Shown here: in pieces, positions 9,989 to 10,100 of the stretch
How the letters are laid out: each line of letters begins with the position of its first letter
How positions within the stretch are numbered: position 1 is the first letter of the stretch
Source of the DNA: Caldilineales bacterium
GTDB lineage: Bacteria > Chloroflexota > Anaerolineae > J102
DNA: 64,000 nucleotides
Direction: 5' to 3'
Assembly (NCBI GenBank): GCA_019695115.1
Contig: JAIBAP010000014.1
Span: forward strand, 32,412 to 96,411
Program-made: the position numbers and the translations under genes
Notes under the pieces: model-generated
What the model saw: the letters and a program-made list of their open reading frames with translations, nothing else
Database searches by the model: none
Told to the model about the DNA's origin: nothing

Positions 9989-10100
9989 GTGGTGTTCCGG
10001 GTTCCGGGTTCCGGGTTCCGTGGTGCGTGTTGTGTGTTCCGTGGTGCGTGGTGCGTGGTGCGTGGTGCGTGGTGCGTGGTGCGTGGTGCGTGGTGCGTGG
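9989..10100. repeat. Tandem heptanucleotide array (GGTTCCG x3, then GTGGTGC about x10)
   Basis: Direct period-7 repeats start at the base next to the HAD start codon, so they form its 5' leader on the minus strand. Confidence 0.9.

Follow-up and report, generated by a model that had tools for sequence, protein, structure and literature searches.

We examined a 64,000-nt stretch of a Caldilineales bacterium genome (Chloroflexota; Anaerolineae; GenBank assembly GCA_019695115.1, contig JAIBAP010000014.1, positions 32,412 to 96,411 of the forward strand), called the window below. The elements in question are tandem arrays of 7-nt units that lie directly against the start codons of 2 minus-strand genes, one for a HAD-family hydrolase and one for an M20 amidohydrolase/peptidase. 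We consider it probable that these arrays are heptanucleotide repeats expanded by slippage and tolerated, in G-poor orientation, beside unstructured initiation regions that work independently of a Shine-Dalgarno (SD) sequence. The 2 genes are not special in this respect; the arrangement belongs to a pattern found genome-wide. The novelty lies in the host lineage, Caldilineales, and in a quantified rule that start-proximal arrays are oriented to be G-poor in the mRNA.

Heptamer arrays abutting start codons

The HAD gene lies at 9272-9988 (minus strand) and in the open reading frame (ORF) list encodes 238 aa from an ATG at 9988, with Pfam HAD_2 matching at 1.3e-28. The original prediction placed a heptamer array directly against this ATG, and the raw sequence agrees, with CAT at 9986-9988 followed from 9989 by GTGGTGTTCCGGGTTCCGG. 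Read in the mRNA sense, the leader begins with a distal array of about 9 CACGCAC units (10019-10100, minus strand), which Tandem Repeats Finder (TRF) gives as CGTGGTG with period 7, 11.7 copies, and 92% matches. After a short irregular stretch comes the start-proximal array (9989-10020, minus strand), which reads ...CACGG(AACCCGG)x3 AACACCAC-AUG and touches the start codon; its TRF row, 9994-10020, is GTTCCGG with period 7, 3.9 copies, and 100% matches. Taken over all 112 nt, the HAD array counts A36 C57 G19 T0 on the sense strand (C 51%, G 17%), and since there is no T there can be no ATG, GTG, or TTG, so an upstream start or a leader peptide hidden in the array is ruled out. The ATG is also the earliest available start downstream of an in-frame stop, and the N-termini of HAD orthologues align at the same Met. 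The protein begins MSPPAAVVFDMDG and has the catalytic DMDG motif at residues 10-13, which together with the T-free array fixes the position of the start. An antisense ORF that crosses the array, 9927-10118, is regarded as spurious. As a separate observation, the template (plus) strand at 9960-10020 carries GGGGGGGG and then 3 GGG runs from the GGGTTCC units, a potential DNA G-quadruplex arrangement.

The same arrangement had been proposed for the M20 gene (13591-14802, minus strand, 403 aa, Pfam Peptidase_M20 3.5e-46), and it is found there, with CAT at 14800-14802 and GGGGGAGATTGGGGATTGGAGATTGGAGATTGGGGG from 14803. The array, of CAATCTC type, occupies 14803-14838 on the minus strand and in the sense direction reads CCCCCAATCTCCAATCTCCAATCCCCAATCTCCCCC-AUG, with no G in its 36 nt (A8 C21 G0 T7); TRF reports 14806-14835 as GGAGATT, period 7, 4.3 copies, 91% matches. 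The ATG at 14802 is the earliest available start downstream of an in-frame stop, and a 95%-identical orthologue in the related locus L013 uses the same one. The rest of the leader (14839-14931, minus strand) is C-rich and non-repetitive and extends to the stop of an AAA-like gene (14932-16536), giving the entire intergenic region C64 and G19 in 129 nt of sense strand (C 50%, G 15%). A third case follows immediately downstream, where the spacer between M20 and an SDR gene (13528-13590, minus strand; TRF rows 13532-13589) consists throughout of C/T-rich CCCTGCGTCTCC-like units that run into the SDR ATG at 13527. The distance from array to ATG is 0-5 nt for HAD, 3 nt for M20, and 0 nt for SDR, and none of the 3 has an SD.

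Predicted initiation without a Shine-Dalgarno sequence

Pairing was scored against the canonical anti-SD, and an SD was called at 4 consecutive bases of AGGAGGT. That the HAD and M20 leaders lack an SD, as first noted by eye, is borne out by best anti-SD duplexes within -20..-1 of -3.5 and +2.8 kcal/mol, respectively, when genes with a clear SD of GGAGG type score -7 to -12 kcal/mol; the SDR leader scores +1.2. Going by the sequence, translation of HAD and M20 is predicted to be SD-independent. They have ample company, as an SD is found in 23 of 49 window genes, and most of the 26 without one have no array either. Those that have neither SD nor array show a C-rich, G-poor bias on both sides of the start codon, with C at 0.36-0.37 versus G at 0.24-0.26 upstream (0.37 versus 0.24 over -40..-1) and C at 0.39 versus G at 0.21 over +4..+30, and this bias recurs in 6 related loci. 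Typical start contexts are CCCCC-ATG-ACCCCCC for M20, TCTCCC-ATG-CCCCCC for SDR, and CACCAC-ATG-TCCCCCCCC for HAD. A symmetric base bias around the start has been proposed to keep non-SD start regions unstructured (Nakagawa et al. 2017, PMC5397173).

Folding predictions for the array-bearing leaders go in that direction. The HAD leader in mRNA sense folds at -22.9 kcal/mol, versus -30.4 kcal/mol for shuffles (z = +2.1); 197 of 200 shuffles equal or exceed its stability, and its centroid structure is almost open. The opposite strand folds at -63.6 kcal/mol. For M20, the array and start region are wholly unpaired in the minimum free energy structure, and the -40..+30 region folds at only -0.6 kcal/mol. 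Mean initiation-region folds are about -11 kcal/mol with an array, -14.6 for genes with neither array nor SD, and -16.6 for genes with an SD and no array, all from small numbers. The combination that characterizes SD-independent, structure-dependent initiation, no SD together with less start-region structure than expected, is accordingly predicted at both HAD and M20.

A side effect of the extreme C-richness around these ATGs (9976-9988, 13516-13527, and 14791-14802 in the window and 3001-3020 in locus L007) is that several of the proteins have N-terminal Pro runs. The N-termini are MSPP for HAD (MPPPTP in a sister species), MPPT for SDR, and MTPH for M20. The gene directly downstream of efp, which encodes elongation factor P (EF-P), therefore starts with a polyproline motif, the kind of sequence that is rescued by EF-P.

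Orthologous leaders with and without arrays

The HAD gene follows efp (10198-10755, minus strand; Pfam EFP_N/EFP/Elong-fact-P_C), and this gene pair is present in all relatives examined. The spacer between the 2 genes, by contrast, varies. At 86% HAD identity (loci L007/L013), a terminator is followed by 70 unique nt where the window has the CACGCAC array, and then by a degenerate CCCGGAA/ACCTGGAA array that abuts the ATG. At 84% (L009), unique sequence follows the terminator and closes with a remnant of the array, CCCTGACCCTGAACCCATC-ATG. Two orthologues at 78% have no array, with 11 nt (L011) and 21 nt (L012) from terminator tail to ATG. At 76% (L036), the whole efp-HAD spacer is 9 nt, and at 71% (L037), the terminator is followed by 55 nt with a GAGAGGG SD. 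Among orthologues at 76-100% identity, none has a properly spaced SD. Since the orthologues without an array are equally SD-less, SD-independence is older than the array and does not rest on its presence.

In the sister species, another gene precedes M20, and the 34-nt spacer between them again consists of the CAATCTC-type units, CAAATCTCCCGTATCCCAATCCCCAATCTCCCCC-ATG. L013 and the window share the final 22 nt of the M20 leader exactly, against an identity of just 77-83% at 4-fold degenerate sites; this may be ordinary constraint on the initiation region. The M20-SDR spacer has the CCCTGCGTCTCC-type repeat in both species, in fewer copies in L013, and a variant of it is found in L034.

A population of arrays

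TRF finds 22 period-7/14 rows in the window, while 20 shuffles that preserve dinucleotides gave 0-1 rows apiece. Merged, these make 19 arrays totaling about 1.06 kb, or about 10% of the window's intergenic DNA, with 3.9-18.6 copies and 83-100% matches. All 19 are intergenic, though non-coding sequence is only 16% of the window. They have every mark of heptanucleotide simple sequence repeats of the class known as short tandemly repeated repetitive sequences (STRRs) or long simple sequence repeats (LSSRs), namely 7-nt head-to-tail units at many intergenic loci that belong to a few recurrent families. The arrays at 3721, 46168, and 56245 cluster together with the HAD arrays (families D2 and D6, from among unit families D2-D6 in the window), and of the window's 17 heptamer arrays, 10 have a CGTG/CACG core, where 8% would be expected (p = 1e-7). 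Arrays also lie directly after stop codons, at 3721, 12517, 46184, 56258, and 57876, and between convergent genes, at 12517/12651 and 61100/61151. Two GTGGCAG/GTCGCAG arrays (57877-57988, 16 copies; 12517-12573, 8 copies) start right after the stops of 2 unrelated plus-strand genes, always in the G-rich orientation.

Loci from Caldilineales/Anaerolineae metagenome-assembled genomes (MAGs), L013-L026, also have such arrays, with densities of 0-4.9 per 10 kb in related loci and 3.8 in the window. Other MAGs (considering loci L014, L015, L019, and L020) prefer other units, CAATTAC, ACTGATT, and TTCGTCT. The distant locus L019 is the only one with a TTACTGA-like unit, and the L019/L020 units ACTGATT/CACTGAT are one mismatch from the TAACTGA of Beggiatoaceae. 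As to the host, its EF-P is 96% identical to that of an "uncultured Caldilineales" MAG, with the next matches, at 65-90%, from Caldilineales, Anaerolineae, and Chloroflexota MAGs.

Orientation follows the nearest gene boundary

In the window and 14 related loci, arrays were assigned to the nearest gene boundary within 60 nt. Gene calls were our own, with a filter demanding higher GC at third than at first codon positions (GC3 > GC1) against spurious antisense ORFs, and with starts corrected past arrays. On the sense strand, C exceeded G in 20 of the 21 start-proximal arrays (mean skew -0.24; binomial p = 2e-5), and G exceeded C in 15 of the 21 stop-proximal ones (start versus stop, Fisher p = 1.4e-5). 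Within the window, the corresponding numbers are 9 of 9 and 8 of 10. Both the HAD and the M20 arrays are orphans, in that neither has the G-rich partner arm that makes a hairpin at other loci. These and other orphan arrays, such as 22108 and 59567, obey the rule, so it is not a mere by-product of G-rich arms being paired with complementary C-rich arms. A bias that is set by gene direction and common to many unrelated units points to a constraint at the RNA level, and hence gives indirect evidence that the arrays are transcribed.

A second regularity concerns where the arrays stop. Where there is an SD, the array stops 10-25 nt short of the start and leaves the SD (GGAGG, GAGG, or AAGGAG) intact, as in 4 other window leaders with arrays at 19672 (16 nt from the start, CCGGAGGAACT-ATG), 22108 (10 nt, CGGAGGCCCCCC-ATG), 58011 (12 nt, GAGGTTCAACTC-ATG), and 59567 (25 nt, AAGGAGCCTCTAG-ATG); the array at 4256 in L013 likewise ends ahead of an intact SD. 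The SD-less cases, in which the array comes within 0-5 nt of the ATG, are HAD, M20, SDR, L014 11540-11581, and L017 6871-6903. Halting at SDs and otherwise running to the ATG is the pattern expected from expansion into constraint-free space. The array at 58011-58052 (plus strand), a C/A-rich CACGNAA repeat followed by the SD GAGG, is in the leader of an aldehyde dehydrogenase gene whose longest ORF, from 57996, would translate the heptamers, while the true start is the ATG at 58065 after the GAGG. Arrays can thus mislead start-codon calling.

These findings divide what was originally proposed, that the repeats are themselves functional leaders or that the genes use an SD-independent route. SD-independent translation gains support and a transcribed leader is likely, but a dedicated leader or enhancer element that replaces the SD is not supported. 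Most SD-less genes have no array, HAD orthologues at 78-84% identity have at most a vestige of one and are likewise SD-less, and the 4 window arrays just listed are followed by intact SDs. The same unit families also occur after stops, between convergent genes, and in inverted pairs.

A more specific version of a functional leader is that the arrays are sequence-specific cis-regulatory elements, in which a protein that binds RNA periodically (S1, Csp-like, CsrA-like, or other) recruits or blocks ribosomes and so runs a post-transcriptional regulon. The 5 SD-less cases are indeed at unrelated genes in different genomes, the orientation bias is strong, the unit type is kept at orthologous sister-species leaders up to the identical 22 nt before the M20 ATG, and the units are family-restricted with a common core. 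A precedent exists as a hypothesis for Beggiatoaceae TAACTGA repeats (PMC4679880), and GGA motifs recur in the HAD leader. The CsrA-type reading of those GGA motifs was dropped as a main explanation as they are not conserved in L009, L011, and L012. We find a regulon unlikely overall, as the HAD and M20 units are unrelated (AACCCGG/CACGCAC versus CAATCTC), the same families appear in 3' regions and between convergent genes, array-less orthologues do equally without an SD, and copy numbers vary freely between species. The downstream genes are functionally unrelated housekeeping enzymes, and Rfam models, run over the entire window at gathering thresholds, did not match anywhere, leaving no known RNA family over the leaders.

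Probable transcription of the arrays

Directly upstream of the HAD arrays is an intrinsic-terminator-like hairpin of efp (10117-10147, minus strand), GGCCCGGTCACGCAACCGGGCC with the tail TTTCTTTTCA. The terminator scan gives it as 10147-10126 with an 8-bp stem of 7 GC pairs, flanked by unique sequence of about 50 nt on the efp side and 17 nt before the CACGCAC array, and the hairpin is kept in the orthologous loci L007, L009, L011, L012, and L037. A promoter scan of 9000-17000 found no sigma-70-like promoter between this terminator and the HAD ATG, and neither a promoter nor a terminator match in the M20 leader. From the lack of a promoter match, the T-free sense strand at HAD, the strand bias, and the arrays that fill the junction between 2 oxidoreductase subunit genes (described below), the arrays are probably transcribed as part of leader or intercistronic RNA.

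The opposite would hold if the mRNAs were leaderless, with a promoter in or over the array, transcription from the ATG, and the array as untranscribed DNA. TATAAT-like boxes do lie 8-9 nt upstream of several other window starts (e.g., 35728 and 31146), so that the lineage may use some leaderless mRNAs, and a low rate of leaderless genes has been reported in Chloroflexi (PMC3160421). However, a TANNNT -10 element is impossible in the 112 T-free nt upstream of the HAD ATG, there is no -10-like hexamer in the CCAATCTCCCCC preceding the M20 ATG, and the promoter scan is empty there. We regard leaderless transcription of these genes as very improbable. With the array touching the ATG, it is physically implausible that transcription starts between the two.

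If the arrays are transcribed, their composition raises the question of Rho. Rho-utilization (rut) sites are C-rich, G-poor, and unstructured, over an RNA stretch of about 70-80 nt. As rut-like sites, the arrays could tie downstream expression to efficient translation through polarity or attenuation, or could back up the efp terminator. The HAD leader, at 112 nt with C 51%, G 17%, no T, and essentially no structure, has the right look, as does the M20 intergenic region at C 50% and G 15%. But C-rich leaders are general in this genome, including at operon junctions that need read-through, the HAD array reaches the start codon of a conserved and presumably expressed gene, and short arrays such as the 36 nt at M20 are below the usual rut size. 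A Rho role is, on balance, quite unlikely.

Copy number and stability

Tandem heptamers in 5' regions are a known substrate of phase variation, as in hmw1A/hmw2A of Haemophilus influenzae (PMC12721329, PMC8262952), and copy numbers of the present arrays differ between species. By that precedent, the arrays would be contingency loci in which slippage shifts the copy number and switches or tunes HAD and M20 expression. Contigs for comparison were recovered by exact-protein look-ups, which found the HAD and M20 proteins on wastewater-type metagenome contigs and in MAG GCA_026129265.1. The HAD spacer is the same 209 nt in all 4 independent assemblies that span it, and the M20 leader is identical in the 4 contigs that span it; since these are consensus assemblies, minor alleles could be missed. 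A metagenome scan with the HAD 5' coding sequence for copy-number variants gave 0 matches. Beyond the constant copy number, the genes downstream of arrays (HAD hydrolase, M20 peptidase, SDR, oxidoreductase, aldehyde dehydrogenase) do not belong to the surface, virulence, or restriction-modification classes, and the array has no promoter spacer that it could change. Phase variation of the arrays is unlikely, and as the explanation of the HAD and M20 arrays we give it next to no weight.

Two assemblies, a JGI metagenome contig (L003) and the NCBI MAG GCA_026129265.1 (L004), end inside the CACGCAC array about 100 nt upstream of the HAD ATG. Arrays of this kind fragment short-read assemblies, and MAGs will therefore undercount them.

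Paired arrays and dispersed copies

At several intergenic places, a G-rich array is followed by a C-rich array that is complementary to it, or complementary in the CGUG/CACG core: 19652-19800 (minus strand), 61095-61180, 56250-56398, 21185-21270, and 46220-46330. These pairs fold as long hairpins with z from -3.1 to -6.8, the most stable at -5.6 to -6.8. The pair at 19656-19789 (minus strand) has a G-rich arm and a complementary C-rich arm (AACCAATCTCCAAT x6), then the SD GGAGG, and folds at z = -5.65. It fills the junction between genes matching Pfam POR_N/PFOR_II and TPP_enzyme_C/POR, the subunits of one 2-oxoacid:ferredoxin oxidoreductase (OFOR). An inverted pair (CGTGAAA)n/(TTTCACG)n found by TRF between convergent genes, at 61100-61170, folds at -42.9 kcal/mol with z = -6.76. 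A 63-nt hairpin containing arrays occurs twice in the window, at 21195-21257 and 61110-61172, with 81% identity, and the flanks at 21170-21275 and 46345-46475 are alike (AAAGAAA..CTCGGTyCTGAA ... CTTCAyAACmAATCAACC). The sequence suggests a dispersed element of about 110 nt, similar to repetitive extragenic palindromes or miniature inverted-repeat transposable elements, that carries heptamer arrays.

With these pairs in mind, a wider reading can be drawn, in which the arrays make up a modular "intergenic punctuation" system with fixed polarity in Caldilineales, and the orphan C-rich arms at HAD and M20 truly set translation efficiency. The G-rich arm could come after a stop and the C-rich arm ahead of the next start. 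Complementary arms could form an intercistronic hairpin for stabilization, processing, or termination, and the C-rich arm could also be an unstructured, SD-free landing pad for ribosomes. A dedicated mechanism for spreading the units is hinted at by the species-specific families, the CGTG/CACG core, and the dispersed copies of about 63-110 nt. We hold this wider reading to be possible but doubtful.

Weighing slippage and tolerance

Returning to slippage and tolerance, the arrays would be local members of genome-wide STRR/LSSR-type heptanucleotide repeats that are typical of this Caldilineales lineage, presumably expanded by replication slippage in the short intercistronic spacers efp-HAD, AAA-M20, and M20-SDR. 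They would be transcribed together with the downstream gene, on the assumption of read-through of the efp terminator for HAD and of co-transcription with the upstream gene for M20. Next to starts, they would persist only with the G-poor, C/A-rich strand in the mRNA, through selection at the RNA level that keeps the initiation region unstructured. Such a region would meet the known requirement of SD-independent 30S loading, a route apparently used by more than half of the genes, which the symmetric C-rich bias around the AUG would assist. The arrays themselves would act passively, as unstructured spacer or standby RNA that is tolerated and filtered for orientation, with no part as a dedicated translational signal.

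Four points weigh against this. The orientation statistic uses our own GC3-based gene calls, and some of its array pairs are orthologous and non-independent. The efp terminator, with its 8-bp stem and T-tract, looks like a good one, and read-through has to be assumed. Unit type and position are kept across species at HAD and M20, which, with the identical last 22 nt of the M20 leader, could mean a specific function. Finally, the shared core and the dispersed hairpin copies are not explained by independent local slippage from random seeds, and are a hint that the units spread by some mechanism or that selection acts on specific sequences.

The finding provides a testable regularity, that start-adjacent arrays present their G-poor strand in the mRNA, and it ties the arrays to SD-independent initiation on unstructured leaders. 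If the arrays merely fill free space, they are ordinary; if orientation and unit identity are functional, they offer a handle on the old question of what heptamer arrays do.

Other features of the window

Within the coding region of the minus-strand ORF 37948-39435, positions 38582-38787 hold a degenerate hexamer/12-18-nt repeat (GGGGTG, about 34 copies) that presumably encodes a low-complexity segment rich in Pro, Thr, and His. At about 36855-37520 (plus strand), there are 2 small ORFs of lower GC, missed by the GC3 filter, that from their sequence resemble a pair of ribbon-helix-helix (RHH) antitoxin and MazF-PemK-type toxin; the second ORF of this putative pair starts MPTPIRRGQIYNANLDP... 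Lastly, about 1 kb of lower GC at 62461-63466 has no convincing ORF and no Rfam match at the gathering threshold.

Comparison with known heptamer repeats

The literature on heptanucleotide arrays goes back 35 years and covers cyanobacteria, Xanthomonas, Burkholderia, Chloroflexus, and Beggiatoaceae; to our knowledge, these arrays have no accepted function. We likewise know of no description of the start-proximal G-poor orientation rule for STRRs. One window array, (CAACAGT)n at 31831-31861, has a unit that probably equals one of the 3 classical Calothrix STRR units, reportedly described by Mazel et al. 1990; a literature search for the STRR unit sequences returned nothing relevant.

The cyanobacterial STRRs have 7-bp units, are intergenic, and often form hairpins between co-transcribed subunit genes such as hupS-hupL, where a role in transcript stability or translational coupling has been suggested (PMC2670836). 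The window arrays resemble them in having several 7-bp families dispersed intergenically, and the layout between the OFOR subunit genes is the same. They differ in the host, here a high-GC Caldilineales member of the Chloroflexota where the strict definition requires a (heterocystous) cyanobacterium, and in the dominant units, which here have the CGTG/CACG core or are CAATCTC.

Closest in position are the TAACTGA direct repeats that adjoin start codons in marine Beggiatoaceae, for which S1, Csp, or irrelevance were hypothesized (MacGregor 2015, PMC4679880), so that heptamers abutting starts at the SD position are already published. HAD, M20, and SDR share with them heptamers a few nt from the start, in one preferred orientation and at the place of the SD. 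In both systems, moreover, SDs are rare in repeat-bearing intergenic regions and the downstream genes are functionally unrelated. However, Beggiatoaceae have a single unit in 2-6 copies, whereas here there are many units (AACCCGG, CACGCAC, CAATCTC) in up to 16-18 copies, equally common after stops and as inverted pairs, and the SD is kept in 4 of about 10 array-bearing window leaders.

The heptanucleotide excess among LSSRs was attributed to polymerase slippage by Mrazek et al. 2007, as summarized in PMC4679880 and PMC4692102. Intergenic sequence holds about 90% of the GGGAATC repeats of Xanthomonas and the GGGGATT repeats of Nostoc, which lie between the same gene pairs in related species with varying length and sequence (Rehm et al. 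2015, PMC4692102). The present arrays are like these in being over-represented, mostly intergenic, without a link to virulence genes, and with slippage as the proposed origin. In Xanthomonas, the repeats are near the upstream ORF and roughly equally on both strands, in contrast to an orientation tied here to the nearest gene boundary. Within the same phylum, the (GATAGRA)n satellites of Chloroflexus aurantiacus are one heptamer family scattered genome-wide and possibly transposed (Subirana & Messeguer 2019, PMC6749651), but class, units, and GC content all differ, and no relation to start codons is reported there.

Finally, SD-independent initiation as described by Scharff et al. 2011 and Nakagawa et al. 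2017 (PMC5397173) has the same features as the HAD and M20 starts, that is, no SD, weak folding at the AUG, and the same bias upstream and downstream. That literature is on ordinary leaders, whereas the unstructured sequence here comes from a tandem repeat.

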